From contig JBFHPZ010000001.1 in assembly GCA_041592495.1 (NCBI GenBank), positions 1 through 57,515 of the forward strand: DNA of 57,515 nucleotides, given 5' to 3'. Under the pieces are notes generated by a model. The model ran no database searches and was not told the origin of the DNA. It was given only the letters and a program-made list of their open reading frames with translations. The stretch's first letter is position 1, and each line of letters opens with the position of its first letter. The DNA is from Gammaproteobacteria bacterium (lineage in GTDB: Bacteria; Pseudomonadota; Gammaproteobacteria; SZUA-229). Made by a program: the position numbers and the translations under genes. Positions 18,828-43,186 of this stretch are shown here, piece by piece.

Positions 18828-18839
18828 TTAACGTTTTTT

Positions 18840-19862: not shown

Positions 19863-19867
19863 AAAAG

Positions 19868-20887: not shown

Positions 20888-21194
20888 TTGACTTGCGTCC
20901 CTGGACGTAACCTGGCCGGATATAAAAATAGAGTGTGAGCCAGGCGAGGCAGCCAAATAGCAGCGTGTACGCACCCAAGATATACAAAATTATTGAATCG
21001 GAATTAAATCCAAAAAATAGGGTTAATGAGGCTCCAGCCAGGGCAATGTACAGGGATGGCCAGAGGATTAGCCAGTTAATATGAATCTTGTATTGCATTA
21101 GCCTGGCAGACCGGCTAAATAACCATACGCCAGTGCCATAGAGTAAAGTCAGAAATGCGGTTTCGGCCAGAAGAAACAGGATTTTCATTAACAT
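20874..21194 (-). CDS. Small integral membrane protein (106 aa, 3-4 TM)
   Basis: Uniformly hydrophobic. Its ATG overlaps the TAA of the upstream GMC gene (TAATG) and its 3' end overlaps the GT2 start, which suggests translational coupling. Confidence 0.5.
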   Translation of the reverse strand: MLMKILFLLAETAFLTLLYGTGVWLFSRSARLMQYKIHINWLILWPSLYIALAGASLTLFFGFNSDSIILYILGAYTLLFGCLAWLTLYFYIRPGYVQGRKSNEIK

Positions 21195-22777
21195 TATGCA
21201 ACCTGTTCCCTGTCTTTGATGTGATCAGCCAACCTCAAGGCAAGGGCTACAATCGTCAGTGTTGGATTGACATGGCCAGATGTTGGAAATACCGAGCTTC
21301 CGGCTATGTATAAATTCTCGATATCATGAATTTTGCAATCACGATCGACGACGCCCTGGCTTGGAGAGTCGGACATGCGTGTTGTGCCCATATGGTGGGC
21401 AACATCCCGAAAATTATGCGCCCAGTCCGAACGGTTATTTTCCATCCAGTCTTTCATTCTGAAGCGTGAATGATAGTGGCGTGTAAGCTGTTTGGCGATT
21501 AATTGCTGGGATTCGACTGTTGTCTGCTTGTCAATGTCGAGCATGCGCCAGTCGACTTTGGAGCGTCTTAATCCCAGGCCGTCAGTTTCATCGCTAAGCA
21601 TGATGCGACTATCCGGGTTCGGCGCTTGCTCTGTATCCATCGACAATACGGAGATGTTGTTAATAAGTGTATTCGATTCCGGTCGAAGGAAACGTCGCCG
21701 GGTATTCATTATCAACTCATCAATATCGCGTATTACATTAACTGCATTCTGATCCAGGTCTTTTAACGGTTCACCGTTTAAAATGTTTGATGCGATCGCG
21801 GATGCGGAGTGGGTTGCTGATTGATTATTGCCTTCGTAGTAGTAAATCGCACCTGCATTCAGCAGTTTACTTTCCCGTTGCACCTGGTCACTGGTACGGA
21901 TGCCCAATACATAGCTGTCTTTGCGGGATTGATAGGTGTTAAAGGTTTTTTTCAGGTCGTAGGGGTCGCCAAAGTGGACCACGGTAGCCTTGCTACGCAG
22001 GTGCTCCATGAAGTATCGGCCTACCAGGTCGTTACGATTTCCAAGGCCGTTGGGGTGTACATTGTCGGAAAGCAGCAACATTCTCGCATTTTCAATACCA
22101 CCACAGCTGAGTACAAATCGTCTGGCCTTGACGCGTGCCTGGCGCTTTTCAAGTGAGCTGATATTGACGTGGGAAATCGAGTTTCCTTCGGGCGTTGCCT
22201 GTATTCGCGTGACATTCGCATTCAGGATTACATCGATATTGTCGGCGGTGCTGAGCGTATCTTTGTATTTCGGTCCAAACCGGGTTGGTGCGCTGAATTT
22301 CCATACCTGGTTTTCCAACTCGGAAGCATCAAACTTTGATGCGGGTATGCGAAATTGAGTGAAAACGTCATCCGTTGCTGCGAAAATCCCGAGATCACAG
22401 TTTTTCCAGGCTCTTTTGTAATAGGGAGAGAGTTCCTGGAGAGAGATAGGCCAGCCGCTGTTGGGTACCCAGTCACGTTTTTCGAAATCGATAGGATTAA
22501 GGGGAGCGCAACGTCCGTCCCAGTGATTGGTGGTTCCGCCGAAAAATCTGAGGCGTGAAAGTATGCTGTCATCAAGCGGTACGCCAACATTTTCCACGTC
22601 ATAAAGTTGCTGGGTATTTATGTTGAGTCCCATGTCGCCGCTTTCCAGCAGGCAAACCCTCAGTGGAGTGTTCAAAAACTCATTGGCAATACTGATACCT
22701 GCAGCGCCAGCGCCAATAATACACAGGTCGCACTCAATGAGTTGATCATCCGGTATGTCATTCAAATTGCGTATCAT
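21194..22777 (-). CDS. GMC-family FAD-dependent oxidoreductase
   Basis: N-terminal FAD fold CDLCIIGAGAAGISIA and C-terminal HHMGTTRM...YIAGSSVFPTSGHVNPTLT, typical of GMC oxidoreductases. Confidence 0.85.
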   Translation of the reverse strand: MIRNLNDIPDDQLIECDLCIIGAGAAGISIANEFLNTPLRVCLLESGDMGLNINTQQLYDVENVGVPLDDSILSRLRFFGGTTNHWDGRCAPLNPIDFEKRDWVPNSGWPISLQELSPYYKRAWKNCDLGIFAATDDVFTQFRIPASKFDASELENQVWKFSAPTRFGPKYKDTLSTADNIDVILNANVTRIQATPEGNSISHVNISSLEKRQARVKARRFVLSCGGIENARMLLLSDNVHPNGLGNRNDLVGRYFMEHLRSKATVVHFGDPYDLKKTFNTYQSRKDSYVLGIRTSDQVQRESKLLNAGAIYYYEGNNQSATHSASAIASNILNGEPLKDLDQNAVNVIRDIDELIMNTRRRFLRPESNTLINNISVLSMDTEQAPNPDSRIMLSDETDGLGLRRSKVDWRMLDIDKQTTVESQQLIAKQLTRHYHSRFRMKDWMENNRSDWAHNFRDVAHHMGTTRMSDSPSQGVVDRDCKIHDIENLYIAGSSVFPTSGHVNPTLTIVALALRLADHIKDREQVA

Positions 22778-22786
22778 GGATCGTCT

Positions 22787-23185
22787 CTAGGATAGAAGGC
22801 GAAGAGCGCACAATCGGGCTTCAGTGACAGTAATGGGCCAGCCATCGAGAAACAGCACTTTGTCGTTCATCAAATCTTCCTGAAGGCGCGCTGAGATGGA
22901 TGCTCTCAAAGAACTGGAGGAGGCCGGTGCATATGGATCAAGGATTGTGGCCAGCAGCCGGTCAAAGTCATTTTCGGCTGGATGTTGTGCCAGATAAGCC
23001 TGTCCCAGCTTTTTGCTGGCCGGGTTTTCGGGTAATGCCCGCAGGAATTCGCGCATAGCATCAGCCTGAGTTGTTATCGATTTTCTCGAAATAGACTGTG
23101 CAGGTGCGGATTTCAGGAATGTTGAGGACAGTGCAACGAGCTGCAGTGCGATGAGAAATTTTCTTCTGTTGTGATTGATCATCAT
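22787..23185 (-). CDS. Small Tat-signal subunit partner of the GMC oxidoreductase (gluconate 2-dehydrogenase subunit 3-like)
   Basis: MMINHNRRKFLIALQLVALSS has a twin-arginine-like signal. Its size and its position just upstream of a GMC gene match the usual two-gene arrangement. The track start at 23239 is a TTG. Confidence 0.55.
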   Translation of the reverse strand: MMINHNRRKFLIALQLVALSSTFLKSAPAQSISRKSITTQADAMREFLRALPENPASKKLGQAYLAQHPAENDFDRLLATILDPYAPASSSSLRASISARLQEDLMNDKVLFLDGWPITVTEARLCALRLLS

Positions 23186-23414
23186 TGCATGTTCTTGTTT
23201 CAATTCAGATATTGTGGAGTTTAGCGCTGTTGAGGGCAACCGTTTTCTGATTTCGCAACCCTGATTGCTACCTGAGAGTTCCCCGGCCGTTACCGAATAG
23301 GTAAAATTTATACAATATATTGATTATATTAAAAAATAATGTTATCAATGCCGCGTTTATCCCTGACTGCAACTATCCATAACGCTCGACCAGTTGGCCT
23401 GAGATATTTTCATT

Positions 23415-23828
23415 ATGTTCAAAAGAATAACCGAAATAGCGCTGTTGCTGATTCTATCTGTTCTGCTCTTTCCCCTGTATGCACTGGTATCGGCAGCGGT
23501 CGATTTCCTTTTAGGCGGTCTGGCGTTGCAGGATACCCTGAAATTTGAATCCCATCGGGTGTTTTTCGACCAGTTCCTGGCGGCCTGGATGGCTTCATTG
23601 CCGGTATTTACTGTTCTGTTCCTGCTGGTTTACTGGCCGCTGTCCGTTATTCTACGCCGGTTGCGATTCCCCTGTTTCGGGATTTTTCTGACATCTGTCG
23701 TAATTGCAGGCACGGGAATAGGGGTGTTCCTTTACGGCATGGCCCCTGTGCCGCTATTGAGCCTACTGTTAAGTTCGATGTTGCTGGCCGCGGTGCATGC
23801 CGTAGGGTTCTGCCGACGTCTTGATTAA
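23415..23828 (+). CDS. Hypothetical integral membrane protein (137 aa, about 4 TM)
   Basis: Hydrophobic throughout and first gene of a + strand three-gene unit. No named motif. Confidence 0.5.
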   Translation: MFKRITEIALLLILSVLLFPLYALVSAAVDFLLGGLALQDTLKFESHRVFFDQFLAAWMASLPVFTVLFLLVYWPLSVILRRLRFPCFGIFLTSVVIAGTGIGVFLYGMAPVPLLSLLLSSMLLAAVHAVGFCRRLD

Positions 23829-23847
23829 GAATGCCGAGTCTCCGTCA

Positions 23848-25290
23848 ATGAAACGATTAATAACCCTCATTCTGCTCTATACCTTTGCCGCCATGTCCCT
23901 GGCAGACAATCGCGTAGTCCTGTTCGGGGGCGGCCCCATGCCTGAAGATTCGCAGGTATCCATTGAGAAAAATACGCTCTGGATTCTGTCTTATCTTCAA
24001 AGCCAGTTTGCCGCGGAAGATATTGCATTTTATTACACCGATGGGAATGGAGCTTTCCCCGATGTGCGGGCGCCACAGGCACAGCCGGTTTCGCCTGATA
24101 CGGAAATGCTCACCCGAGTATTTCGTAAGGAATCCGAACTGGGAATTGAGTATCGACAGAACCTGTTCGATACCGAGCATGGATCGGCCGCTGCCTATGA
24201 GCTTGTTCCCGCGTTGGACAATGCATTTCAGTCTGTCGCTGCGGGTGACACCCTGACCTTGATTTACCAGGGGCATGGTGGGTACCGCCCCGCTAATACC
24301 CTGGATAATTATTTCAGATTGTGGAACGGAACCGAGCTCACGGTGACCGATATGGCTTCCTTGATGTCCCGGGCCGATGCCAATGCCCGCATCCGCTTTC
24401 TCTTTCCGCAGTGTTTTTCCGGGGCTTTCTCCCGGGTGATTTACAAGAACGCTGATTCTAAGCAGGGGTTATCCGAAAACACACGTTGCGGTTTTCTGGC
24501 GCAACCGGAATATCTGGAATCGGAAGGCTGTACAGACAGTGTCTATACAGGCGATTATCGGGACTATTCCTCTTATTTTTTCAGCGCTCTCAGTGGCAAT
24601 ACCATTGGCGGGCAGCCAATTCCGGGCCAGCCTGATCTGAATTCAGATGGGACTATTACCCTGCGTGAGGCGCACCTGTATACCCTGGAACATGCACGTA
24701 GTATTGATTATTCACGCTCGACCAGTGAAGACTACCTGGAAAACTGGCAGCCCTGGTACCTGAAATGGGCGCCGTCTTCCCATGCGGTGGACAACGAGTA
24801 TGCTGCTTTAGCACGACGCTTGTTATCTGATCTGGGTTATACCGGCGAGTGGCGGCAAGTATCGCCGCAGCTCTGGAAGGATATTCGTGATCTGGAAAAG
24901 CTTGCCTCCGACGACAAGCAGAAACTTGACGCACTTAATACAAAAATCAGGAAGCTTCAAAATCGCATTCAGTTGCCCCTGTTGCTGGAATGGCCCTATC
25001 TAAAAAACCCCTACGGGGAGACGTACCTGCGGAATATTGTCAAAGACCTTCCGAGTATGTATTCCCGGCTCGAACAAGACCCGGCATACCAGGAGTTGCA
25101 GGCGTTACAGCAAGAATACGAACAACTTGAAATCACGGAACTGGAGCATCGACGTAACCTGACCCAGCGTCGCAAGGTAATCCGTTTCTACAAATTGGCG
25201 AACCTCCTGGACCAGTTTGGGCGTCATGGTAGCGAGCAGGAACAACAGGATTACCAACGGCTTCTCAGCTGTGAAGATTCTGTCTTGTAA
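23848..25290 (+). CDS. Secreted protein with a legumain/clan-CD-like (peptidase C13-type) His...Cys core and a C-terminal coiled coil
   Basis: Signal peptide MKRLITLILLYTFAAMSLA. A beta-strand VVLFGGG is followed by TLIYQGHGGY (His codon 24274-24276) and, 46 aa later, RFLFPQCFSGAF (Cys codon 24412-24414). That is the order and spacing expected of caspase-fold cysteine peptidases. The gene is confident; the family call is motif-level only. Confidence 0.5.
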   Translation: MKRLITLILLYTFAAMSLADNRVVLFGGGPMPEDSQVSIEKNTLWILSYLQSQFAAEDIAFYYTDGNGAFPDVRAPQAQPVSPDTEMLTRVFRKESELGIEYRQNLFDTEHGSAAAYELVPALDNAFQSVAAGDTLTLIYQGHGGYRPANTLDNYFRLWNGTELTVTDMASLMSRADANARIRFLFPQCFSGAFSRVIYKNADSKQGLSENTRCGFLAQPEYLESEGCTDSVYTGDYRDYSSYFFSALSGNTIGGQPIPGQPDLNSDGTITLREAHLYTLEHARSIDYSRSTSEDYLENWQPWYLKWAPSSHAVDNEYAALARRLLSDLGYTGEWRQVSPQLWKDIRDLEKLASDDKQKLDALNTKIRKLQNRIQLPLLLEWPYLKNPYGETYLRNIVKDLPSMYSRLEQDPAYQELQALQQEYEQLEITELEHRRNLTQRRKVIRFYKLANLLDQFGRHGSEQEQQDYQRLLSCEDSVL

Positions 25291-25331
25291 ACCGATAAGA
25301 ACATCAACGTACATCATTACTGGGCATTAGC

Positions 25332-26483
25332 TTGGATATTTCACTGCATTTTGGATTATCGGGGCTGCTGGAGCTTCAGCAGTCCTGGCAAACGCTGGAA
25401 AGCAAAATCAATCGGCCGAATCATTCGCATTCGTTTGCCTGGTGGCAGGCTTATCTCGAGGAGCTGGCCAGCCAGCCTGATGAATTCTGCTTCATTTCGG
25501 TGCGGCAGGATGGCGAGACTATTGCGATTTGTCCATTTGTAACGCAGGTGCATAGGCGGTTTGGACTGTTCAGCGCCCGGGTACTGGCCTCTGTGCATGA
25601 CCCTAATTTCCTGTTTCCCGATATCATGGTTGTACCGCAGCACCAGCGGCCGGACTTTCTGCCGGAACTGGCAAAGCGTCTATCCCGTCTATTGAAGTGG
25701 GATATGTTGGTGATTGGCGGGGTCATGGGTGTACTGGAGACTTCGCACGCCGTTGCCTGCCTGCCCAAGCTGTCGCAACCGCGGCTGTTTCGCGAGAATG
25801 AAATCGGCTGTTTTGATGTACCTATGGATGATTACGAGGCTTACCAGCAACGCCTTTCGCGCAAGGATCGGGCTAACCTGCGTCGCACAACCAAGAAAAT
25901 CGAAGCGTATGACGATTGTTTACATCAGTCTGTCATGGAGCCAGAGAAGATACCGCAGGCCCTGCAAACATTTCTGGATGTTGAAGCGGCCGGCTGGAAA
26001 GGCGCGGGTGGCGAGGGTACCGCCATCAAGGTCAATCCGGAGATGACACGCTTTTATGAAAAGCTGGCCGCGGCCTACGCTGCATCCGGCCAATGCCAGG
26101 TCAACCTGTTGTCAGTGGAAGGCAACACCATCGCCGGACAGTTTGCATTCCAGTTGGGCGATACCCTGTACATGAACAAAATCGGGTTTAACCCGGATTA
26201 TTCCGGGCTTAATCCAGGTAACGTGCTCATGGGCAAGCAATTCGAACGTTATTGTGCGGATCCTGGCATTGCCCGCGTCAACCTGATGAGCAGTGCGCAT
26301 CATCTCAAGAAGTGGGCCCCTGACCTGGAACCCAGCTATCGCTACTATTTATGCAACACGACCCTCGCCGGTCTCGCAATTACAGCGTTTTTCCGGCTAA
26401 AACCCTGGTTAAGAAAGGCGAAAGCGCGATTGCATGAGATGAAGAAGAAAGACCCGGCGGCAACGACCGGCGAGGTCTCCTGA
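25332..26483 (+). CDS. FemAB/CelD(BcsL)-like GNAT-fold transferase
   Basis: ...FAWWQAYLE... and LDVEAAGWKGAGGEGTAI...GNTIAGQFAFQLGDTLYMNKIGFNPDYSGLNPGNVLM form a CelD-like pattern. It has a TTG start and no early in-frame ATG. Confidence 0.65.
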   Translation: MDISLHFGLSGLLELQQSWQTLESKINRPNHSHSFAWWQAYLEELASQPDEFCFISVRQDGETIAICPFVTQVHRRFGLFSARVLASVHDPNFLFPDIMVVPQHQRPDFLPELAKRLSRLLKWDMLVIGGVMGVLETSHAVACLPKLSQPRLFRENEIGCFDVPMDDYEAYQQRLSRKDRANLRRTTKKIEAYDDCLHQSVMEPEKIPQALQTFLDVEAAGWKGAGGEGTAIKVNPEMTRFYEKLAAAYAASGQCQVNLLSVEGNTIAGQFAFQLGDTLYMNKIGFNPDYSGLNPGNVLMGKQFERYCADPGIARVNLMSSAHHLKKWAPDLEPSYRYYLCNTTLAGLAITAFFRLKPWLRKAKARLHEMKKKDPAATTGEVS

Positions 26484-26488
26484 TTCCG

Positions 26489-27910
26489 TTAGGGGATGTT
26501 CTTGATAATCGGAGGACCGATGAGTTTGGTTAATGCCACCGGTAGCCGTTTCCAGGTGTTGATCATCAGTGCATATTTTTTATTGGTAGGATTGATCGCT
26601 GGCAAGGCTTCGCCTTCACGCAGCCAGTAATGCCAATAGGACTGTTTCGGTTCGGCTCCCCATTGACGTTTGAAGCGATAGGTGCCGGAATCGATAGAGG
26701 ATCTGCCGAAATCAAATATCTTGAATCCCTGGCTGACAGCATGCTGTAAGACCGACCAGTACAGGAGCATGTTGACGCTCAGATGATTCATATCCTGTCG
26801 GGAGGATGCCCAGGGGATTTCCAGTCTGTCGCGATAACCCATGAGAAAACCTGCTGCTACCGGCTTTCCGTTCAGGCGGACGGACACAATCCAGCAATGT
26901 TCTTCAAATGTTTTCAGGATGGCCTCAAAAAAATAGCGACCATAAACCGGTGTGCCAAGGTCGCGCATATTGCGACTGAAAACGGCATAGAAATCATTCA
27001 GTAGCTCAGCTTTGCCAACCCGGATATCCGGGTTTTCACGTTGTGGTCGCTTGATCTGGGCGCGTAGCTTGGGAGTGAAGCCGTTCCACAGGGCTTCAAT
27101 ACTGTCCGGGAGTTTCAATAACATGTTCACTTTTTCCGAGCGGACAGGCATGCCTTCGCGCGGAATATCGTCCCGGTACTCAATGTGCGAAACGCCCAGG
27201 GTGGTAGCGTACTGATTCGCCTGGTTAATCAACAGTTGTTCGATTTCCGGGTGATCGGCGATAGCGCCGCCGTAATTAAAATAAGGCATGGAAACCAGGA
27301 AATCGCCAAACAGGCGGCTATTGAGCCTTATCAAAGGCAATACGCCAAGGACGTTGTTTTCCGGGCCACGTGCCTGCAGGTAGTGGGCCGTGTGACCAAA
27401 TGTGGTTTTGACAAGATCGCGCCAGGCGGAAAGGTGATAAATACTGCTATGCGAATTCTGGGCTACATAGGTATCCCAGGCCTGGGTGTCTTCGCTCAAG
27501 GTATCAATCGTGATTTCCTGAGGTCTAATTTGGGCGAGCCGGTAGCGAGGAATTGCTTTTTCCTGCTGGCTCTTTGTTGACTCAGTGTCGTTCGCAAAAA
27601 ATTCCAGTAGCTGTTCTTCCCGCGACTTCTGGGTGCTTGCGAGCTGTTTTAACTGTTCAGATAACGTCTTCACCTTTGCCTTGAGAGGCTCAATGGGTTC
27701 ACCCGCGGCCTTGGCCTGACCGATCTGTCTGGACAAGCCTTTTCTGTCATCGTCCAGCGACTTTATATTGTCATTCAGGGAGTTCAGCTCGGTGGAGATT
27801 TGCTCGATTTCGGTGAGGGAGGCGCTATCGGGCGAGGGATTTCTTTCACGGTAGGCGGCAACGGGATCGGCAAGCAAGATCTTGCGTTCAGCTTTGGAGA
27901 AACCACTCAT
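26489..27910 (-). CDS. FemAB-related protein (PEP-CTERM-system-associated type) with an N-terminal seryl-tRNA-synthetase-arm-like coiled coil
   Basis: Residues from about 130 to 473 (IYHLSAWRDL...LPLIRLNSRLFGDFLVSMPYFNYGG...EIPWASS...FDFGRSS...YRFKRQWGAEP) fit the FemAB-related family. Residues from about 30 to 110 include LSRQIGQAKAAGEPIEPLKAKVKTLSEQLKQL, which resembles the SerRS N-terminal arm. Confidence 0.8.
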   Translation of the reverse strand: MSGFSKAERKILLADPVAAYRERNPSPDSASLTEIEQISTELNSLNDNIKSLDDDRKGLSRQIGQAKAAGEPIEPLKAKVKTLSEQLKQLASTQKSREEQLLEFFANDTESTKSQQEKAIPRYRLAQIRPQEITIDTLSEDTQAWDTYVAQNSHSSIYHLSAWRDLVKTTFGHTAHYLQARGPENNVLGVLPLIRLNSRLFGDFLVSMPYFNYGGAIADHPEIEQLLINQANQYATTLGVSHIEYRDDIPREGMPVRSEKVNMLLKLPDSIEALWNGFTPKLRAQIKRPQRENPDIRVGKAELLNDFYAVFSRNMRDLGTPVYGRYFFEAILKTFEEHCWIVSVRLNGKPVAAGFLMGYRDRLEIPWASSRQDMNHLSVNMLLYWSVLQHAVSQGFKIFDFGRSSIDSGTYRFKRQWGAEPKQSYWHYWLREGEALPAINPTNKKYALMINTWKRLPVALTKLIGPPIIKNIP

Positions 27911-27925
27911 GTAGCGATCAAATCC

Positions 27926-28960
27926 TTAAATCCATCCTGAAAGTCGGGCGAGAAATGCCGTTTTGTCTGAGGCTATATCGTTATGAACCCCGATTCGCTT
28001 TAACAGGTGTGCGTCAGAGGTTGCGTTGTTCCAGCCGGATTCGGTAGTGACGGCTGTACGGTAGAGGGATTTCACCAGGGACAGGGCTTCTGGCGAGTAA
28101 TCGCCGTTCGGAAAGCAAAAGGCCGAAACCGGTCGCTCGATGCTCTGTTCGATATGGGTTTTACAGTCACCTATCTCATGCCTCAGCACGTCAGCGGCAA
28201 GCCCGCTATTCAGGCGAATGTGATTGCAGGTATGACTGCCGAATTCAATCAGCCCCGATGCCTGCATTTCCTGTACTTGTTGCCAGTTGAGTAATGCCGC
28301 CGACGTGGTGGCGTTATTCAGGCCAAGTAATTTCTCAATCTGGTCCAGGCGGATATGGATGTCGTCGTCATTAAGGCTTTTGGCGGTGGCTATAAGCTGA
28401 CTAAGTTGCTCCCGGCTGGGTGCCTTGCTACCGAAGTTAAAACTGGTGTCCGCGCGGGTTAACCATTCCAGATCGGGTGAAGACCAGAGCTCGGGTTTTT
28501 CACTCGAAATCTGCGTGGCAATACGAGCCAGCCGTTCAGGCCAGAATTCACGTTGAGTGTTGATCATTTCCGACACCAGGAAAATGGTGGCTGGAATCTC
28601 GCGTTTTTTTAGTATGGGGTAAGCAAACTCGTAATTATCCGCCCAGCCGTCATCGAAGGTGATGGCGCAGGCCTTGGCCGGCAGTTTCTCGCCATTTTCC
28701 CGCGCCTTGATCCACTCCGCGAGCGAAACAACGTCAAAAAGCCTTTCAATCTCCCGCAGGTTGCTTTCCAGCGTTGCCGGGGTGACGACCATGCCAGGTT
28801 CTTCCTGTAGGTAGCGTGGATCGTTTTCCGGTAACACGCGGTGATACATCAATATGACGAGCGCGGGACTGGAAGGAGTGCGCTTGTGTGGGCCGAAATT
28901 AGCCGCGGCATATTGAACGCCGCGCTTGATCAGCTGTTTGATTGAGTGACTGACAGACAT
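27926..28960 (-). CDS. Polysaccharide deacetylase (NodB homology domain)
   Basis: CAITFDDGWADNYEFAYPILKKREIPATIFLV and EFGSHTCNHIRL. Start taken at ATG 28960 (MSVSHSIKQL). Confidence 0.8.
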   Translation of the reverse strand: MSVSHSIKQLIKRGVQYAAANFGPHKRTPSSPALVILMYHRVLPENDPRYLQEEPGMVVTPATLESNLREIERLFDVVSLAEWIKARENGEKLPAKACAITFDDGWADNYEFAYPILKKREIPATIFLVSEMINTQREFWPERLARIATQISSEKPELWSSPDLEWLTRADTSFNFGSKAPSREQLSQLIATAKSLNDDDIHIRLDQIEKLLGLNNATTSAALLNWQQVQEMQASGLIEFGSHTCNHIRLNSGLAADVLRHEIGDCKTHIEQSIERPVSAFCFPNGDYSPEALSLVKSLYRTAVTTESGWNNATSDAHLLKRIGVHNDIASDKTAFLARLSGWI

Positions 28961-29037
28961 TCGGGAAATGATGATTTCGCAGGTTTCGGGTATCGTATAA
29001 ACTATTGTCCATCCGATAGCGAAAAACAACAAGTCCT

Positions 29038-30144
29038 GTGAAAACCATTCTTCATGTCATAGATACCACGGGTCCCGGTGGTGCGGAAACAGTCTTCATT
29101 GATCTGCTCAGTGGTCTGGATAAGTCGCGATACCGCTCGCTGGTTCTGATCCGCGGACCTGGTTGGGTTTGCGATGAACTGAAGCGACGCGGCTTCGAGC
29201 CGATCATTCTTGATGCCAAGGGGTCGTTTAACTGGCGCTATCTGCTCGCGATCGTGAAGCTTATCCGTTCCGAAAAGGTTGATCTCATCCAGTCGCATTT
29301 ACTCGGGTCCAACGTATATTGCGCACTGGCTGGTTTGATAGCGCGCTGTCCGGTGGTTGCGACCTTTCATGGCGCGGTGGATATTGCCTCAAAAGAACGA
29401 TTCATGGGGGCAAAATTTGCAGCAATTAACCTTGGCGCCAGCGCGATTATTGCTGTATCCGAGAATCTTAAACGGGATATCGTCGAGAGGACACCGCTAA
29501 GGGCGAGCAAAACACGCGTAATTTATAACGGGGTTGATATCGAGGCTTTCCAGTTGCCACGGTCATCCGAGCTTCGTCAGCAGCATGGGTTACCCGACGA
29601 TTGCGTGATTATTGGTTCCCTGGGGAATATTCGTCCCGCCAAGGGCTATGATGTGCTGATCCGGGCTGCGGCACGAATCAAGGATACCCGGCCCGAGGTA
29701 CGGTTCGTGATTGCCGGGCAGGGGAGAAAGGGTTTGTCCGAACAACTGGAAGCGCTGCGCAGGGAACTGGGCGTTGAGGAGCAGGTGATATTTCATGGAT
29801 TCGCGGGCGATCCGGCGGCATTCCTGGCCAATCTGGATCTGTTCCTGTTGCCGTCGACTTCAGAGGGATTCTCCATTGCGACCATTCAGGCCATGGCGGC
29901 TGGCTTGCCGGTGATTGTCACCCGTAGCGGAGGCCCCCAGGAAATTGTCACGCACAACGACGACGGCTGGATGGTAGAACCGGGCAGACCGGACGAAATT
30001 GCCGATGCGGTTGCGCGACTGGTTTCTGATCCGCCGCTGCGCCAGCGATTGGCGGATCAGGGTAGAACACGTGTGGAGTCGACCTTCAGCCTGGCAGCCA
30101 TGCTCCAGGCCTACTACAGTCTCTACGAGACGTTATTGGCCTAG
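29038..30144 (+). CDS. Glycosyltransferase family 4 (GT-B)
   Basis: ILHVIDTTGPGGAETVFIDL at the N-terminus and C-terminal LLPSTSEGFSIATIQAMAAGLPVIVTRSGGPQEIV (E-x7-E region). GTG start. Confidence 0.85.
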   Translation: MKTILHVIDTTGPGGAETVFIDLLSGLDKSRYRSLVLIRGPGWVCDELKRRGFEPIILDAKGSFNWRYLLAIVKLIRSEKVDLIQSHLLGSNVYCALAGLIARCPVVATFHGAVDIASKERFMGAKFAAINLGASAIIAVSENLKRDIVERTPLRASKTRVIYNGVDIEAFQLPRSSELRQQHGLPDDCVIIGSLGNIRPAKGYDVLIRAAARIKDTRPEVRFVIAGQGRKGLSEQLEALRRELGVEEQVIFHGFAGDPAAFLANLDLFLLPSTSEGFSIATIQAMAAGLPVIVTRSGGPQEIVTHNDDGWMVEPGRPDEIADAVARLVSDPPLRQRLADQGRTRVESTFSLAAMLQAYYSLYETLLA

Positions 30145-31313
30145 TTGCGCAGGTCCCGCAGATATTTCTTTAATTCGTACCAGAATGGACCCAGGTCATC
30201 CCAGCGATTGACCTCGTGCCGGGTGGTAAAGAATGAAGGCGTTAGAAAGGTCGTCAGCTGCTTCAGTTTGACAGGCCAGCCAGTGCGCCTGTCCTTGAAA
30301 CTGATATATAGGCTATCCAGATCACCCAGTAGCCATCGCAGTCTTCGGCCTAGTCGGTAGTTCATCTGGGGTTGAGGATGTGCGCCGTCAAGCAGCTGAT
30401 AGAGTAAATAAGGAAAATCCACTCCTGAATCAATGGCGAGCTGGAGCGAACCCCAGAAGCGGGTATTAATTTCCATCAGGTAGGGCGTGCCGTCATTGCC
30501 GACTTTGAATTCCACCATGGCGACGCCGTGCCACTTAACTTCATCCAGCAGCGATCTGGCGGCTGCCAGCAGTTTTTCGTCCAGCGGACAACTTTCGGAG
30601 AGGACACTGACGCCCCCCCAGGGTGGTTTTTCCCGCAGTCGTCGATGGGAAAAGAATGCCAGCGGTTTGCCATGATCATACAGGGCAAATATTCCCTGGC
30701 CTGTTCCGGTAACACATTCCTGAAACAGGAAGCGTTCATACTGAAATCCGGGATCGGTTTCCAGGTAATGTCTGACTTCGTCGGCACTGGCAGCTATTCT
30801 CACACTGCTTCGGAACCAGCCGGATGGGGCAGGCTGCCAGGACCTGCCGGGCTTCATGACCAGGGGGTACGGCAACGAATCCAGATCAAGGGAGAGATTC
30901 CGCGGATCATCGATGTACCAGGTTCTGGGTATTACTACATCCAACCCAGTGGCCAGCTGCATGAGATTGTATTTGTCGGCAACGCTGTTAACGGTTGTTG
31001 CAGCTGCAAATGGAAGCAAGACGCCGCTGAGTCGTTCCTTGTGCTCAAGGAGTAGTTGAGTTGTTAACTCCGTCATTGGGAGCAGGATATCGATCTTCTG
31101 TTCGGTACAGATTGTCGCGATACTGTCGATGAAGTCTGCAGGAGACTCGGTAGGCGAACCATATTGTCGATATGCCTGAGGGTAACGGGAATTGCCGGCC
31201 AGGGCCTCGGATGTGGTATCCGCCGTAATAAGAGGGACGCCCTGCCTGCCGAGGGAACGGGTAACCGCAAGCGCGCTGCGCTGGTTGGCATCGAGGATCA
31301 GGACTTTTTTCAT
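30141..31313 (-). CDS. ATP-grasp family carboxylate-amine ligase-like enzyme
   Basis: MKKVLILDANQRSALAVTRSLGRQG, PLVMKPGRSW and HGVAMVEFKVGNDGTPYLMEINTRFWGSLQL are ATP-grasp signatures. Confidence 0.8.
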   Translation of the reverse strand: MKKVLILDANQRSALAVTRSLGRQGVPLITADTTSEALAGNSRYPQAYRQYGSPTESPADFIDSIATICTEQKIDILLPMTELTTQLLLEHKERLSGVLLPFAAATTVNSVADKYNLMQLATGLDVVIPRTWYIDDPRNLSLDLDSLPYPLVMKPGRSWQPAPSGWFRSSVRIAASADEVRHYLETDPGFQYERFLFQECVTGTGQGIFALYDHGKPLAFFSHRRLREKPPWGGVSVLSESCPLDEKLLAAARSLLDEVKWHGVAMVEFKVGNDGTPYLMEINTRFWGSLQLAIDSGVDFPYLLYQLLDGAHPQPQMNYRLGRRLRWLLGDLDSLYISFKDRRTGWPVKLKQLTTFLTPSFFTTRHEVNRWDDLGPFWYELKKYLRDLRN

Positions 31314-31423
31314 GGCATTATTGTGAGCTGTTCGTCTATGAAAAATGAGATTTGAAAATTATACTGATTTCTGGGTATATTAGGTAGCTTATTGATTATG
31401 AAAGAATTCACTCTGGAACGCTT

Positions 31424-31978
31424 TTGACAAATCCACTTTCAACCCGGATAGCTCACCGTTACGGTTCTAAAAGAGGGATGCTTCGTACCCAGTGGTACCG
31501 ATTACTCTATCTTCTTGGGTTCTATCAGAAGTATCAACGAGTAGATTGGGCGGGGGTAAAGCGCCTGGTGTTTGTTTGTAAGGGAAATATCTGCCGGAGT
31601 GCTTTTGGCGAGGCGGTGGCGAAAGCGAAGGGGATTTCCGCTGCCTCATTCGGTATCGATACGATTGATGATGCCCCGGCAAATGCAACTGCGATAGAGG
31701 TTGCGCACGAGAAAGGCATCGATCTTACTTCGCACCGTACTCGTCAAATATCAGGATATAAGTATCAGGAAGGGGATTTATTGTTGGCGATGGAGCCGTG
31801 GCAGGCGAGCATTTTGGAAGACCAGTTTGGTAAAAATACGCAAATAACACTGCTGGGGATCTGGGCAGAGGTCAAGTTACCGCACCTGGGGGATCCTTTT
31901 AATACTTCTCTTGAATATTTCCAGCGGTGCTTCAGTTTAATATCTGCAAATGTAAGCAGTATATCCTCCCGGTTTTAG
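31424..31978 (+). CDS. Low-molecular-weight protein-tyrosine phosphatase
   Basis: P-loop VFVCKGNICRSAFGE (CX5R-S) and a downstream DP loop (HLGDPF). The start is uncertain: TTG 31424 versus ATG 31478. Confidence 0.75.
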   Translation: MTNPLSTRIAHRYGSKRGMLRTQWYRLLYLLGFYQKYQRVDWAGVKRLVFVCKGNICRSAFGEAVAKAKGISAASFGIDTIDDAPANATAIEVAHEKGIDLTSHRTRQISGYKYQEGDLLLAMEPWQASILEDQFGKNTQITLLGIWAEVKLPHLGDPFNTSLEYFQRCFSLISANVSSISSRF

Positions 31979-32064
31979 AAAAGGGATGTAAAAAATCCGC
32001 ATGGATTTTCGAAGAAATATAGTCAATTCCATTCCGAATAGTTAATAAGGTTAAGGATTTAGTA

Positions 32065-33258
32065 ATGAAAATACTTATGGTGTGGGATGGTGATTATCCT
32101 TGGGACGTGCGAGTTGAAAAAGTATGCACTTCATTTCTAGAAAATGGCGATGCTGTATCGTTGCTAAGTAGAAATTCTAAAGGACTTCCTCTCCGAGAGA
32201 ACATTCAGGGGTTATCTGTTAGAAGAGTGTTTGGATTTCAAAAAAGATTAAAAAGTCTAAATAAAATTTTGTCATTCCCCTTTTTTCTGTCACCAGTCTG
32301 GTTGTGGGGGATATATAAAAGTATTAAAGAAACACAGCCTGATTTAATCATCATTCGAGATTTGCCGATGGCTTTAGGGGTTTTGGCTATTTCTAAGCCA
32401 ATGAATATACCTACGGTATTAGATATGGCTGAATGTTATCCAGAAATGCTCAGATGCATCTGGAAATTTGAAAAGTTTCGCTGGCAGAATATTTTTGTAA
32501 GAAACCCTAAATTGGCTGATATTGTTGAGAAAGTAACAGTCCGTAATGTAGATATGAATTGGGTTATGGTTGAGGAGTCAGCGCGACGTCTTGTTAGAAT
32601 GGGAGTTGATTTAACGCGGATTACTATTGTTAGTAATACACCAAAAATCAAGGATGAGAGTGGTGTAGAGCATCAAAAAAGAAATGAAGACGCCATTTTA
32701 ACGAATATTTCTTACATAGGGCTAATAAACCCATCTCGTGGGCTTGCTACTGTGCTAGAAGCGGCCGTGCTTCTAAAAAAAGATCAAATTCCAGTGCATT
32801 TTACAATTGTAGGCTCAGGTAAACAGCTTGACGAACTGAAAAAGTTTGTTGAAGAAAATGATCTGAATTCCATAGTGAGTTTGCTTGGATGGATTGATCG
32901 AGATAAGGCAGAGGCTGTGATTGAGAAAGCTGATATTGGTATTGTTCCACATTACAAATGTTCGCATTGGGATAATACCATACCGAATAAGCTTTTTGAT
33001 TATATGAATCTGGGTGTTCCCGTTCTTTCTTCAGATACAATTCCTGTAGAGCGTATTATTTCTGAAACGCAGTGTGGCCTTATATACCGAGATACTGATC
33101 CTGCTGACCTGGCGGAAAAAGTTAAAGAGTTACTTGATGTAAGGAAGAGGGCCTGGCTTGGCAGTAATGGTAAGAAGGCTATTGCTGATAAATACAATTG
33201 GCAAATAGATAGTAAATTACTTGTTGAGTCCGCACTCGGTTTGCTTAAACAGAGATAG
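32065..33258 (+). CDS. Glycosyltransferase family 4 (GT-B)
   Basis: MKILMVWDGDYPWDVRVEKV at the N-terminus. The C-terminus has typical GT-B architecture, including IPNKLFDYMNLGVPVLSSD. Confidence 0.75.
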   Translation: MKILMVWDGDYPWDVRVEKVCTSFLENGDAVSLLSRNSKGLPLRENIQGLSVRRVFGFQKRLKSLNKILSFPFFLSPVWLWGIYKSIKETQPDLIIIRDLPMALGVLAISKPMNIPTVLDMAECYPEMLRCIWKFEKFRWQNIFVRNPKLADIVEKVTVRNVDMNWVMVEESARRLVRMGVDLTRITIVSNTPKIKDESGVEHQKRNEDAILTNISYIGLINPSRGLATVLEAAVLLKKDQIPVHFTIVGSGKQLDELKKFVEENDLNSIVSLLGWIDRDKAEAVIEKADIGIVPHYKCSHWDNTIPNKLFDYMNLGVPVLSSDTIPVERIISETQCGLIYRDTDPADLAEKVKELLDVRKRAWLGSNGKKAIADKYNWQIDSKLLVESALGLLKQR

Positions 33259-33268
33259 AGTTCTTTAT

Positions 33269-34594
33269 ATGCATCGCCTGCTATCTAAATATTTACTATA
33301 TTATCCAGTCACGCTCTTGAAGGGGGAGTTAGTAGCGGCATATATGCCATTTTATAATAATTTCCAAAACAAAACAGCAGATGAAATTCAGGCGTATCAA
33401 TTAAAAAGTTTTAAACGCATTGTTGAGTATGCTTTTAAGAATAATCAATTTTATAAACAGCATTACGGGTCTGGGTTTTCGTTGGCGGATATCCGCTCAC
33501 TTGACGATTTAAAACAAATACCAACAATAACAAAGAATGATTTGATCGGAAGTATCAGTGAGCTTTCAAGCACAAAGAATTTGTTCTCTTCCTCAAAAAC
33601 AACGGGCGGTTCAACTGGGCAGCCTGTACGATTATATAAATCTCCTGATGCTTTAGCTCGTGAAAGAGCGGCTACTTGGCGAGCATATCAATGGGCGGGA
33701 ATTGAAATTGGAGATGCACAAGCAAGATTTTGGGGTGTGCCTCACTCTCAATCAGGAAGATTTAAGGCGCGAATTGCGGATTTTGCTGCAAACAGACTCA
33801 GGATGTCGGCTTTCCAGATAACAGGTGAAAACCTTTCCAAATACTATAAGGATATACACAGATTTGGCCCGGCATACTTATATGGTTATGTTAGTGCGAT
33901 TGATGAATTGGCTAAATTTGTAATTAGTGAAAATCTATCTCCATTCCCATCCCTGAAGTCTGTAATAACTACATCAGAGGTATTAACTGATACCGCCAGG
34001 AGCCGAATTTGCAATGCTTTTGGTGTCAAGGTTTATAATGAATATGGGTGTGGTGAAGTGGGTTCGATTGCTCATGAATGTGAACATGGCTCAATGCATC
34101 AGATGGCAGATAACTTAATTGTTGAGGTCGATTCTCCACCAGGTGAGCCAGGTGAAATCATAGTTACAGATCTGTTCAATAAGGCTACACCACTCATAAG
34201 GTACCGACTAGGGGATTATGCGACCTTTGATAACTCAAAGTGCTTATGTGGTAGATCGCTACCCGTGATATCAGCAATACATGGGAGAGCTTATGATTTG
34301 ATTAGGACGATCTCGGGGAAAATGATACATCCTGAATCTTTGATTTATGTTGTTGAGGGGCTACAACAAGAAACAATGGCTTTTAGGCAGTTCCAGGCGG
34401 TTCAGGAAACTTTATCTAAAATAACTATATCTATAGTCCCATCTGAAAAATTCTCGGACAGCGTTGTTAACAGATTAATCGCATTGTTGAAAAATGATGT
34501 TGATTCAAGTATTGATTATGAAATTCAACTTTGTAATGAAATTCAACGGGAAAGCTCGGGTAAGATGAGGCTTGTGAAGGGATTGAAAAACTAG
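33269..34594 (+). CDS. Phenylacetate-CoA ligase-like / CapK-type adenylate-forming enzyme
   Basis: IPTITKNDL, the AMP motif SSKTTGGSTGQPV, and YNEYGCGEVG...GRAYD. Start at ATG 33269 (MHRLLSKY). Confidence 0.75.
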   Translation: MHRLLSKYLLYYPVTLLKGELVAAYMPFYNNFQNKTADEIQAYQLKSFKRIVEYAFKNNQFYKQHYGSGFSLADIRSLDDLKQIPTITKNDLIGSISELSSTKNLFSSSKTTGGSTGQPVRLYKSPDALARERAATWRAYQWAGIEIGDAQARFWGVPHSQSGRFKARIADFAANRLRMSAFQITGENLSKYYKDIHRFGPAYLYGYVSAIDELAKFVISENLSPFPSLKSVITTSEVLTDTARSRICNAFGVKVYNEYGCGEVGSIAHECEHGSMHQMADNLIVEVDSPPGEPGEIIVTDLFNKATPLIRYRLGDYATFDNSKCLCGRSLPVISAIHGRAYDLIRTISGKMIHPESLIYVVEGLQQETMAFRQFQAVQETLSKITISIVPSEKFSDSVVNRLIALLKNDVDSSIDYEIQLCNEIQRESSGKMRLVKGLKN

Positions 34595-34613
34595 AAGAGC
34601 GGGATGTTGATAT

Positions 34614-37436: not shown

Positions 37437-37440
37437 TTAC

Positions 37441-38313: not shown

Positions 38314-38348
38314 TAATTTTCCTTTCGAACAAAACATTGGGGTTGTAA

Positions 38349-41791: not shown

Positions 41792-41814
41792 ACTCTACCC
41801 TTTTATTTGGTATT

Positions 41815-43179: not shown

Positions 43180-43186
43180 GCCTTGG

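Follow-up and report, generated by a model that had tools for sequence, protein, structure and literature searches.

The Wbp/Vim pathway of Porphyromonas gingivalis and Tannerella forsythia proceeds from deacetylation by VimE, through amino-acid transfer by VimA, to the PorU sortase (Veith 2020, PMC7468200). In this pathway, VimA, a GNAT-type protein that matches TIGR03019, selects the amino acid that the freed amine of the sugar receives, VimF is a GT4 protein, and the PorU sortase uses the aminoacyl-sugar as its acceptor in type IX secretion (PMC7468200). Loci that combine a deacetylase, a FemAB protein, an asparagine synthase, and an exosortase were proposed as possible equivalents of Wbp/Vim (Veith 2020, PMC7468200); both the idea of amino acids on sugars for deacetylase plus FemAB in exosortase loci and the tie of these genes to exosortase anchoring, on which an earlier note on the present DNA touched, date as proposals from 2020. 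In the Campylobacter jejuni HS:2 capsule, the ATP-grasp amidoligase Cj1438C forms an amide on the glucuronate C6 carboxylate during chain assembly (PMC11800379).

Gene content of the locus

The window, the whole 57,515-nucleotide stretch of gammaproteobacterial DNA analyzed here, is a complete XrtA/PEP-CTERM exopolysaccharide (EPS) locus that contains PrsK, PrsR, PrsT, a chain-length determinant, a Tyr kinase, a TIGR03006 deacetylase, an exosortase, and a TIGR03013 priming transferase. We consider it fairly probable that, within this locus, two functional units with independent inheritance meet in the interval 23415-31313 and, jointly with this reading, that the first of them, unit A (19868-26483), is a ∼6.6-kb accessory cassette whose insertion separates deacetylase-b from FemAB in the backbone. 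The second, unit B, comprises g4-g7 (26489-31313) and belongs to the conserved XrtA backbone. The genes concerned are as follows.

16925-17782: TIGR03006 canonical XrtA deacetylase, outside the 23415-31313 interval
19868-23239, minus strand: operon of GT2, 3-TM mini-protein, GMC flavoprotein, and Tat-signal small subunit (unit A)
23415-23828, plus strand: g1, small membrane protein of 137 aa with four hydrophobic segments (4-TM) that serves g2 as partner or tether (unit A)
23848-25290 (alternative start 23821), plus strand: g2, predicted cysteine peptidase or transpeptidase of clan CD with a caspase/legumain fold, secreted (unit A)
25332-26483, plus strand: g3, cytoplasmic FemX-fold dupli-GNAT (Acetyltransf_6) transferase (unit A)
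26489-27910, minus strand: g4, canonical XrtA/PEP-CTERM-associated FemAB with an N-terminal SerRS-type coiled-coil arm (unit B)
27926-28960 (ORF reaches 29032), minus strand: g5, CE4/NodB-type polysaccharide deacetylase (unit B)
29038-30144, plus strand: g6, GT4 glycosyltransferase, convergent with g7 (unit B)
30141-31313, minus strand: g7, ATP-grasp ligase (unit B)
31424-31978: low-molecular-weight (LMW) protein-tyrosine phosphatase, gene next to g7

Re-examination of the open reading frames reproduced the seven genes and orientations of the earlier note, as well as the tetranucleotide CTAG (30141-30144) that supplies the TAG stop codons of both convergent genes, g6 and g7. The gene orientations also agree with its three transcription units, but promoter and terminator scans returned a number of sites not above that in shuffled sequence. 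For g2, homologues and the signal peptide MKRLITLILLYTFAAMSLA favor the ATG at 23848. Alignment with orthologues of 341-345 aa favors M25 (nucleotide 28960) as the start of g5, so translation probably begins there although the ORF extends to 29032.

The proposed family labels held up in HMM tests for FemAB and ATP-grasp (TIGR03019, PF13480, PF15632) and for the NodB deacetylase and GT4 (PF01522, PF00534), and the clan-CD label of g2 passed a structure test.

Unit B is part of the conserved XrtA backbone

In collinear loci, the backbone genes run as follows: chain-length determinant, Tyr kinase, TIGR03006 deacetylase, Acetyltransf_6, deacetylase, FemAB, deacetylase, GT4, ATP-grasp, LMW protein-tyrosine phosphatase, and Wzy-like protein. 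Collinearity with this backbone was found in FemAB-anchored loci L084-L086 (∼50% identity) and in ATP-grasp-anchored loci L087, L091, L103, and L105. Collinear backbones are missing g1-g3. In L085, L086, and L091, FemAB is followed directly by deacetylase-b, whereas the segment 19868-26483 lies between these two genes in the window; the GT2/GMC operon is also absent from these three loci. The earlier note had taken all seven genes to be accessory, but g4-g7 are a widely conserved, collinear part of the backbone.

Counts from ATP-grasp-anchored loci with enough flanking sequence describe the same neighborhood. A g6 orthologue is convergent to the ATP-grasp gene in 31/57 loci, a g5-type deacetylase lies downstream of it in 19/45 (and anywhere in 41 of the 80 loci), FemAB is present in 12/28, and the LMW protein-tyrosine phosphatase in 27/64.

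The g4 product scores 374.8 bits on TIGR03019 (cut-off 260), with the model spanning residues 143-473, and its residues 22-104 match PF02403 (Seryl_tRNA_N), an arm that also matches solved SerRS structures at E 5e-4. Among 6693 homologues of g4, the PF02403 architecture occurs in 87 of the 120 best and is thus the common one; g4 itself belongs to a described family, TIGR03019. On the basis of its fold and SerRS arm, g4 is predicted to be tRNA-dependent.

As the first gene of the g5-g4 operon, g5 encodes a protein that matches PF01522 (84.9 bits) and has TFDDG and HxxxH motifs, with TFDDG and H267/H271 invariant in the alignment; it is not TIGR03006 and is PgaB-like at its N terminus. Orthologues of g5 adjoin those of FemAB and/or ATP-grasp in many loci. 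The g6 product matches PF00534 at 153 bits, and its 177 bits on TIGR03088 fall under the 409-bit cut-off. For g7, matches to PF15632 (46 bits) and PDB 2pn1 (E 5e-7) were found, residues K154 and E281-x-N283 are invariant, and >565 metagenome stretches contain related sequences. For g5, g7, deacetylase-b, and Acetyltransf_6-a, every curated model stayed below its cut-off.

Unit A couples a 4-TM protein to a caspase-like enzyme

The g1 product has no match in any Pfam or NCBIfam family. By HMM, a g1 homologue immediately precedes that of g2 in nearly all loci for which upstream sequence is available (70 loci with a match, three same-species contigs included), 3-nt start/stop overlaps between the two genes are common, and g1-type and caspase-like domains are naturally fused in six cluster representatives and in L029.

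The g2 product has no Pfam match and lies below every family-level HMM cut-off, and about 600 clusters (50% identity) match it at E<=1e-30. It carries the motifs GHG(143) and QCxSG(189), and family representatives retain H143 in 231/242 and C189 in 239/242 cases. Its AF2 model (pLDDT 89) has PDB matches at E <= 0.001 that are almost all clan CD; Foldseek matches include metacaspase 9 (E 2e-6), legumain (TM 0.59), the GPI-transamidase subunit 8imx_K, GSU0716, and MALT1, with TM-scores against clan-CD structures that are moderate only (<=0.59). In addition, the g2 profile aligns the His143/Cys189 dyad with GSU0716 (E 0.009). An EF-hand-like loop is present at aa 263-274, and g2 probably binds Ca2+; a C-terminal helical domain occupies aa ∼335-476. 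Judged from its motifs and model, g2 looks like an active clan-CD enzyme.

The g3 product matches PF13480 (81.5 bits, E 9e-23). The best PDB match of its AF2 model (pLDDT 87) is Weissella FemX (E 8e-12, TM 0.63-0.65), and other top matches are the aminoacyl-tRNA-dependent peptide synthases Sba18/Sbb17 and the MprF C-domain; the model thus suggests that g3, too, may be tRNA-dependent. Of 53 loci with sufficient flanking sequence, 43 (81%) have an Acetyltransf_6 gene close to the g2 homologue.

The fold matches also bear on an explanation without amino-acid chemistry, in which g3 and possibly g4 would be acyl-CoA-dependent CelD/BcsL-type N-acyltransferases that re-acylate deacetylated sugars, and g2, as an ordinary protease of the periplasm, would mature secreted or PEP-CTERM proteins. 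Homologues of g3 are named "CelD/BcsL family acetyltransferase" or "GNAT family N-acetyltransferase" in the sources, CoA-dependent tandem GNATs (VipF and a clavulanic acid pathway tandem GNAT) are among its fold matches, and the clan-CD enzymes matched by g2 are mostly hydrolases, as metacaspases, legumain, and MALT1 are. We regard this explanation as unlikely, since the best g3 fold matches are aminoacyl-tRNA transferases, most g4 orthologues carry the fused SerRS tRNA-binding arm, which points to a tRNA-borne substrate, and VimA, which matches TIGR03019, sets Ser versus Gly incorporation in vivo (PMC7468200).

The GT2/GMC operon, whose genes were assigned by Pfam (the small subunit has the Tat motif RRKF), is transcribed divergently from g1-g2-g3. 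The same arrangement is found in the closest relative (L167, 61% identity), where a GT2-GMC-small subunit operon is divergent from TM-caspase-Acetyltransf_6 genes and the cassette adjoins a different neighbor gene than it does here. The GT2/GMC set is also linked to g1-g3 in L036 and L065. Unit A moves as a unit, and the g1-g2-g3 arrangement, an uncharacterized cassette, is new to family libraries.

A carbamoyltransferase gene accompanies the g1-g2 pair in 62% of loci, carbamoyltransferases of the NodU/CmcH type were counted in 47/80 loci, and UDP-sugar dehydrogenase and epimerase genes are further neighbors. The cassette occurs within loci with XrtA-type markers in L036, L038, L040, L058, and L083, and within EPS loci in at least seven cases. 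XrtA markers are missing within 10 kb of most g2-family loci, and therefore unit A may be unrelated to EPS anchoring.

This distribution is relevant to the proposal that unit A modifies an envelope lipid or glycolipid and not EPS, with g3 aminoacylating a lipid head group (MprF-like), g1 helping to present or flip the product, and g2 acting in the periplasm as a hydrolase by which the modification is removed or tuned. Such a system would resemble the aminoacyl-phosphatidylglycerol synthase/hydrolase gene pairs PA0920/PA0919 and LpiA/AcvB. The g3 model does match the C-terminal domains of MprF and A-PGS (E ∼1e-9), in one locus (L169) the cassette is next to lpxD-fabZ-lpxA-lpxB, and most g2 loci have no EPS markers within 10 kb. 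However, the FemX matches of g3 exceed those to MprF, unit A encodes no flippase-like large membrane domain, its carbamoyltransferase, UDP-sugar dehydrogenase, and epimerase neighbors point to sugar substrates, and it is embedded in EPS loci in the cases counted above; we regard a lipid target as quite improbable.

The two units are probably inherited separately

In the reading of the earlier note, the seven genes are a single accessory module by which a short peptide substituent is built onto the EPS and afterward processed, the caspase-fold enzyme acting on what the FemAB and ATP-grasp ligases have made. The enzyme classes are mutually compatible in chemistry, and the cassette is found inside the five XrtA-marked loci named above. 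However, g1 and g2 are in 0/80 ATP-grasp-anchored loci and, among 80 g2-anchored loci, FemAB is present in 2, the g5-type deacetylase in 2, and ATP-grasp in 1. All seven genes occur in one of these 80, a Reinekea metagenome-assembled genome (L065) that is the sole case outside the present species and in which they lie with an exosortase, a GMC enzyme, and a GT2 gene within 15 kb. The collinear backbones without g1-g3, the different neighbor of the cassette in its closest relative, and the absence here of the carbamoyltransferase that is its usual partner also count against a single module, which we consider very unlikely. The comparison indicates that g1-g3 and g4-g7 are statistically independent across genomes. 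Because the Reinekea locus holds all seven genes and an exosortase, some functional interplay between units A and B may exist.

Proposed roles of the two units

Gene content, family and fold assignments, catalytic-residue conservation, synteny, and fusions are established here, and for the substrates and chemistry of both units we infer the following. By analogy with Wbp/Vim, the unit B backbone probably puts amino acids on sugars: the CE4 deacetylase would free a sugar amine, the SerRS-arm FemAB would load an amino acid from aminoacyl-tRNA onto it, and the GT4 enzyme would install the modified sugar. The ATP-grasp enzyme would form a further amide bond, with either a uronate carboxylate or the newly added amino acid as its site, and the aminoacyl-sugar may serve as acceptor for exosortase joining of PEP-CTERM proteins. 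Amide-bond chemistry on deacetylated sugars is a reasonable proposal with an experimental precedent in that pathway.

The conserved core of unit A joins two elements: a 4-TM mini-protein with its coupled partner, a predicted clan-CD cysteine enzyme of the periplasm, and a FemX-fold transferase of the cytoplasm. In the cytoplasm, g3 would aminoacylate or acylate a sugar-bearing precursor and, after export, membrane-tethered g2 would cleave or transpeptidate at the added substituent, following the same logic as Fem with sortase or VimA with PorU.

Comparison with known systems

Like Wbp/Vim, the locus combines a CE4 deacetylase, a TIGR03019-matching protein, and a GT4 enzyme. The analogy is incomplete because the window lacks a WbpS/EpsI-type asparagine synthase (amidotransferase) and most Wbp genes. 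It differs further in that FemAB has a SerRS arm, the locus has an ATP-grasp ligase and two additional deacetylases, and the presumed sortase is the exosortase XrtA, which has another fold than PorU. PorU belongs to clan CD, as g2 is predicted to, but g2 is inherited separately from FemAB here. As a PorU/gingipain homologue g2 was rejected, with no C25 structure among its best 50 matches.

Within clan CD, g2 can be compared with the C14 metacaspases/orthocaspases, with legumain and the peptide asparaginyl ligases, and with PIGK/GPI8, a subunit of GPI transamidase (C13). With these g2 shares a predicted alpha/beta caspase-type fold and the order His-Gly, then Gln-x-Cys; its calcium-type loop is as in Ca-dependent metacaspases, and its C-terminal helical domain recalls the prolegumain cap. 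Unlike them, g2 is a periplasmic protein that forms an obligatory pair or fusion with a 4-TM protein and is encoded beside sugar-modifying enzymes, and C475-E476 is invariant in its long C-terminal coiled-coil domain.

Both g3 (by model) and g4 (by HMM) have the dupli-GNAT Fem fold of FemX/FemABX, although g3 has no detectable sequence similarity to solved Fem proteins. In the Gram-positive Fem and sortase logic, amino acids are added in the cytoplasm to a lipid-linked sugar precursor before an extracellular Cys transpeptidase acts; here there is no peptidoglycan context, and the outer enzyme would be clan CD or an exosortase.

Like Cj1438C, g7 is an ATP-grasp enzyme encoded in a polysaccharide locus, but Cj1438C is described as TupA-like, whereas g7 matches ATPgrasp_Ter/PylC-like/CPS-like models and is a stand-alone protein that typically adjoins a CE4 deacetylase. 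Finally, both families of the TIGR03019/TIGR03006 XrtA system are present in this XrtA locus, and the SerRS arm of g4 (residues 22-104), though common, lies outside the TIGR03019 family model.

The XrtA locus and its gene content

The window covers a complete XrtA/PEP-CTERM locus for exopolysaccharide. Outside the interval 23415-31313 it contains the following features.

Features of the XrtA locus outside the interval
16925-17782, + strand: TIGR03006 deacetylase
17772-18827, - strand: second Acetyltransf_6 gene (Acetyltransf_6-a)
18840-19862, - strand: second deacetylase gene (deacetylase-b)
40280-41791, - strand: exosortase, in the AT-rich block
45586-46767: DegT aminotransferase, the only DegT-type one in the window
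Also in the window: PrsK, PrsR, and PrsT
Also in the window: chain-length determinant and Tyr kinase
Also in the window: matches to TIGR03007 and TIGR03018
Also in the window: GT2/GMC operon and LMW-PTP
AT-rich block: glycosyltransferases, AMP-ligase, Wzy-like ligase, sulfotransferase, flippase, and exosortase
Also in the window: exporter and TIGR03013 priming transferase

The exosortase open reading frame scored 185 bits against the XrtA model, below the 208-bit cut-off, and 156 bits against XrtW. It lies with the sulfotransferase, flippase, Wzy-like ligase, and several GT4 genes in an AT-rich stretch (32000-44000, 36-42% GC). This stretch could be a variable region, exchanged horizontally together with the sortase.

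The only PEP-CTERM-tailed open reading frame of the window (6889-7677, - strand) has the tail VPEPSILALLGLGMLGIGLTRRKVK. About 31 nt upstream of it is a sigma-54-type -24/-12 element (7708-7723, - strand, TGGCAC-N5-ATGCA, one mismatch), the one site returned by the sigma-54 pattern search of the window and outside the interval; chance alone would give about 2.5 occurrences of the pattern in a window of this size. An element at this position fits PrsR/sigma-54 control. The GMC flavoprotein gene (21194-22777, - strand) is flanked by two small open reading frames in 20874-23239, one (within 22787-23239, - strand) with the twin-arginine signal MMINHNRRKFLIAL and the other (20874-21194, - strand) encoding a 3-TM mini-protein. 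The GMC oxidoreductase probably reaches the periplasm as a hitch-hiker on the Tat pathway.

The interval contains exactly the seven open reading frames of the earlier note; they are called g1 to g7 here.

Genes of the interval
23415-23828, + strand: g1, mini-protein of 137 amino acids with four hydrophobic segments
23848-25290, + strand: g2, secreted clan-CD-like protein; ATG 23848 is the most likely start and gives a Sec signal peptide
25332-26483, + strand: g3, Acetyltransf_6 protein
26489-27910, - strand: g4, FemAB protein with a SerRS arm
27926-29032, - strand: g5, NodB/CE4 deacetylase; a start at nt 28960 is indicated by orthologues of 341-345 amino acids
29038-30144, + strand: g6, GT4 protein
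30141-31313, - strand: g7, ATP-grasp ligase

As the earlier note had it, g6 and g7 converge and share a stop in the tetranucleotide CTAG (30141-30144). We rejected it as a regulatory feature: the orthologous ATP-grasp/GT4 pairs have a 4-nt stop/stop overlap that reads TTAA in one locus (L084:7720-7723), a 28-nt overlap in a second (L085), and a 27-nt gap in a third (L086). The arrangement varies among these loci and therefore reflects compaction, not a conserved signal. The proposed division of the interval into three transcription units agrees with gene orientation, and a promoter/terminator scan did no better on the real sequence than on shuffled sequence (15 promoter-like and 22 terminator-like sites in 17500-32200 versus 17.7 and 15.8 in shuffles), so operon structure was taken from orientation alone. 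An Rfam scan of the whole window gave no match.

Co-occurrence divides the interval into two units

The earlier note had read the seven genes as one undescribed accessory module and proposed to check whether they recur as a block in other exosortase loci. Around g4 and g7, the comparison covered three loci with FemAB proteins ∼50% identical (L084-L086) and 80 metagenome loci fetched with the ATP-grasp profile. These revealed a collinear backbone that begins with Wzy-like, LMW-PTP, ATP-grasp convergent with GT4, g5-type deacetylase, and FemAB genes and continues with deacetylase-b, Acetyltransf_6-a, the TIGR03006 deacetylase, Tyr kinase, chain-length determinant, and PrsT. In ATP-grasp-anchored loci with enough flank, GT4 was present in 31/57, FemAB in 12/28, LMW-PTP in 27/64, and Wzy-like genes in 26/50; a g5-type deacetylase was found downstream in 19/45 and anywhere in 41/80. 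Neither g1 nor g2 occurred in any of these 80 loci, and a g3-type gene occurred in two. Deacetylase-b directly follows FemAB in L085, L086, and another locus (L091); in the window, the GT2/GMC operon together with g1-g3 (19868-26483) lies between them.

The second comparison was anchored on g2 and covered 80 species-representative genome loci with homologues of 31-40% identity, mostly from Gammaproteobacteria (among them Granulosicoccaceae, Marinobacter, Thiodiazotropha, Sedimenticola, and Reinekea) and also from Sphaerotilus. Near the g2 homologue, loci with adequate flanks contained an Acetyltransf_6 gene (43/53) and a NodU/CmcH-type carbamoyltransferase gene (33/53), usually in the order Acetyltransf_6, carbamoyltransferase, TM protein, caspase-like protein. 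The carbamoyltransferase was not found in the window by tblastn. FemAB was present in two of the 80 loci, a g5-type deacetylase in two, and an ATP-grasp gene in one. A regular-expression screen found no PEP-CTERM-tailed open reading frame near the g2 homologue in any of the 80.

A single seven-gene module would predict that both halves travel together, and one g2-anchored locus does have all seven genes: in L065, from a Reinekea metagenome-assembled genome, they are ordered differently and share a stretch of no more than 15 kb with an exosortase, a GMC enzyme, and a GT2. The full set was found only there, so the expected recurrence as one block did not hold. The interval is best read as the junction of two units, the XrtA backbone (g4-g7, 26489-31313) and an inserted accessory cassette (19868-26483, with g1-g3). 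The earlier note's observation of the genes thus stands, and its interpretation stands in part: four of them belong to a common XrtA backbone for which a hypothesis is already published, and not to one undescribed module.

The closest relative (L167, 61% identity) has GT2, GMC, and small-subunit genes divergent from TM, caspase, and Acetyltransf_6 genes, which is the arrangement of the window but with a different neighbor gene. XrtA-type markers lie beside the cassette in L036, L038, L040, L058, and L083 too, and in other loci its neighbors are genes for UDP-sugar dehydrogenase and epimerase. L036, from a metagenome-assembled genome binned as Verrucomicrobiaceae, has beside its TM/caspase/Acetyltransf_6 cassette very close orthologues of the window's GMC gene (2e-181), GT2 gene 44446-45585 (2e-159), and GT4 gene 32065-33258 (4e-133), so that either horizontal transfer or mis-binning has to be assumed. 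In L169 (6714-11470), the Acetyltransf_6-carbamoyltransferase-TM-caspase cassette has lpxD-fabZ-lpxA-lpxB and a pair of GFO/DegT genes as neighbors, a context which hints at sugars of LPS or lipid A as a possible target in some organisms.

Proteins of the backbone unit

The NodB, GT4, and ATP-grasp labels of g5, g6, and g7 passed HMM tests. g5 matches PF01522 (84.9 bits, cut-off 23.1), and its D127, D128, H267, and H271 (TFDD and HxxxH) are invariant across two subfamilies, as expected of a CE4/NodB enzyme; it does not match TIGR03006, the member of that family being the separate gene 16925-17782 (401 bits). g6 is a general GT4 member (PF00534, 153.5 bits) and scores 177.5 bits against TIGR03088 (stp2), below the cut-off of 409. 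g7 matches PF15632 (46.1 bits, cut-off 29.1) and PDB 2pn1 (E 4.7e-7), and the five orthologues compared all keep the Lys and Glu-x-Asn Mg/ATP residues of an ATP-grasp enzyme (K154, E281, and N283).

The earlier note counted g4 among the accessory genes. It is instead the core FemAB of the XrtA system, as it matches TIGR03019 (374.8 bits, cut-off 260.35) and is encoded in an exosortase A-type exopolysaccharide locus; PF02388 FemAB (33.4 bits, cut-off 24) and PF13480 match as well. Its arm is PF02403 Seryl_tRNA_N (residues 22-104, 38.3 bits; solved SerRS structures, E 5e-4), which is carried by 87 of the top 120 of 6693 g4 homologues, all of about 450-530 amino acids. The arm would fit a tRNA-borne donor.

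In total, the locus encodes three deacetylases of the CE4 type and as many Acetyltransf_6/Fem-type proteins. The paralogues are very divergent: g3 and Acetyltransf_6-a are 17% identical, and g4 has no BLAST match to either. Such divergence suggests several distinct deacetylate-then-reacylate steps.

Proteins of the cassette

The core of the cassette (TM protein, clan-CD enzyme, and FemX-like transferase), separate from the backbone and well conserved, is the more interesting part of the interval; neither g1 nor g2 is covered by a Pfam or NCBIfam model. The clan-CD label given to g2 in the earlier note was borne out by an invariant dyad, fold matches, and a profile alignment to GSU0716, with no Pfam family at E ≤ 0.01. 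The AlphaFold (AF2) model of g2 (pLDDT 89, pTM 0.86) has the caspase-type α/β/α fold. Its PDB matches at E ≤ 0.001 number 39, nearly all in clan CD, including metacaspases, legumain (TM 0.59), PIGK (a GPI-transamidase subunit), GSU0716, and MALT1; these have a probability of 1.00, yet TM-scores of at most 0.59. The clan-CD order, His-Gly and then Cys, each ending a hydrophobic strand, is seen in LIYQGHGG (H143) and FLFPQCFSG (C189). G-H143-G and Q-C189-x-S-G are invariant in an alignment of 22 homologues, and family representatives keep H143 in 231/242 and C189 in 239/242. A profile search of the PDB gave E values of only 0.009-0.24, and in it the dyad is in register with GSU0716. The NCBIfam model caspase_w_EACC1 gave 18.2 bits (cut-off 140), and none of the curated C14, C13, or C25 cut-offs was reached.

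g2 also has a long C-terminal helical domain and a canonical EF-hand-type Ca2+ loop (residues 263-274, window 24634-24669, + strand, DLNSDGTITLRE, D263-x-N-x-D-G-x-I-x-x-x-E274). D263, G268, and E274 of this loop are invariant or nearly so in the family, and the activity of g2 may thus depend on calcium like that of metacaspases. C214, C228, and C475 are conserved besides the catalytic cysteine. In L015, L016, and L044, a thioredoxin-like protein (PF13098, weak; 172-193 amino acids) is encoded directly downstream of the g2 homologue.

The g2 family, mostly gammaproteobacterial, comprises 604 clusters at 50% identity (E ≤ 1e-30). Nearly all loci that extend far enough upstream have a g1-family gene directly before the g2 homologue, and an overlap of 3 nt is frequent. 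Since the two proteins are naturally fused in some cases, an iterative HMM search with g1 at first strayed into caspase-family proteins and was repeated on short proteins only. In these fusions (L029, 9332-11350, and six cluster representatives: P0274, P0279, P0280, P0311, P0319, and P0330; 567-632 amino acids), the g1-type 4-TM part is N-terminal to the caspase-like protein, and the retained signal-peptide-like hydrophobic segment is likely a fifth TM helix. A caspase-like effector of anti-phage defense was excluded by the g2 signal peptide and by PADLOC, the models of which gave no match for g1-g3 or g5-g7 and only coiled-coil noise for g4.

The FemAB-type labels of g3 and g4 were upheld, the dupli-GNAT Fem fold being assigned to g4 by HMM and to g3 by its model. 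g3 matches PF13480 Acetyltransf_6 (E 9e-23), and a sequence search of the PDB returned nothing for it. Its AlphaFold model (pLDDT 87) was built on a shallow alignment, as no more than 13 relatives came out of a word-indexed homology search; the best fold match is Weissella FemX (E 8e-12, TM 0.63-0.65), followed by aminoacyl-tRNA-dependent peptide synthases and the MprF C-terminal domain. The last of these would also agree with a less likely reading, in which an MprF-like system acts on a lipid and is paired with a hydrolase in the periplasm. Alternatively, and again less likely, g3 would perform plain CoA-dependent re-acylation and g2 would be an unrelated protease; aminoacyl-tRNA transferases head the fold list, which points indirectly to aminoacyl-tRNA as the g3 donor. 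In the most economical mechanism, g3 would attach an amino acid or an acyl group to a sugar-bearing precursor, and g2, tethered to the membrane on the periplasmic side, would cleave or transpeptidate at this substituent.

A bolder reading, which we consider rather unlikely, is that g1-g3 are a previously unrecognized, widespread Gram-negative envelope system in which FemX-like aminoacylation of an (often carbamoylated) sugar is followed by a tethered, Ca2+-dependent clan-CD periplasmic transpeptidase acting on that handle. If so, g1-g3 would function in a sortase-like manner, independent of the exosortase, and loci like the window would gain a second way of coupling proteins or polymers to exopolysaccharide.

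Comparison with known systems

Literature searches on the cassette and on FemAB/ATP-grasp genes in XrtA loci brought up no description of the cassette, and papers on floc formation do not mention these genes (PMC9850573, PMC13453990). Among experimentally grounded systems, Porphyromonas and Tannerella have the one closest to the backbone unit, the Wbp/Vim pathway, in which VimE (CE4) strips a 2-N-acetyl group, VimA, which matches TIGR03019, decides whether Ser or Gly goes onto the freed amine, VimF (GT4) is also needed, and type IX secretion system (T9SS) cargo proteins are joined at the aminoacyl-sugar (PMC7468200). Loci with deacetylase, FemAB, Asn synthase, and exosortase genes have already been speculated to make an equivalent amino acid-modified sugar (PMC7468200). 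Like that pathway, the window has deacetylases, a TIGR03019 FemAB, and a GT4; unlike it, the window lacks an asparagine-synthase-type gene or WbpS-type amidotransferase and most Wbp genes, so the complete set of WbpA/B/E/D, WbpS-type amidotransferase, VimE, VimA, and VimF is not present. A precedent for the ATP-grasp partner is the amidoligase Cj1438, which acts on capsule glucuronate (PMC11800379). Amide or amino acid chemistry is plausible for the backbone unit because of these two precedents and the SerRS arm, and the idea is not new.

The acceptor of exosortase-attached PEP-CTERM proteins has been a question since 2006, and the deacetylase-FemAB(SerRS arm)-GT4-ATP-grasp backbone is a concrete candidate pathway to an aminoacyl-sugar acceptor. 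The curated XrtA gene set is extended by members without a family model, namely two additional deacetylases, the second Acetyltransf_6, and the ATP-grasp ligase. In the TM/clan-CD/FemX-like cassette, a caspase-fold enzyme of the periplasm would be linked with enzymes that modify sugars, which is rare; if g2 is a transpeptidase, the cassette would also be a Proteobacterial parallel to PorU of the type IX secretion system.
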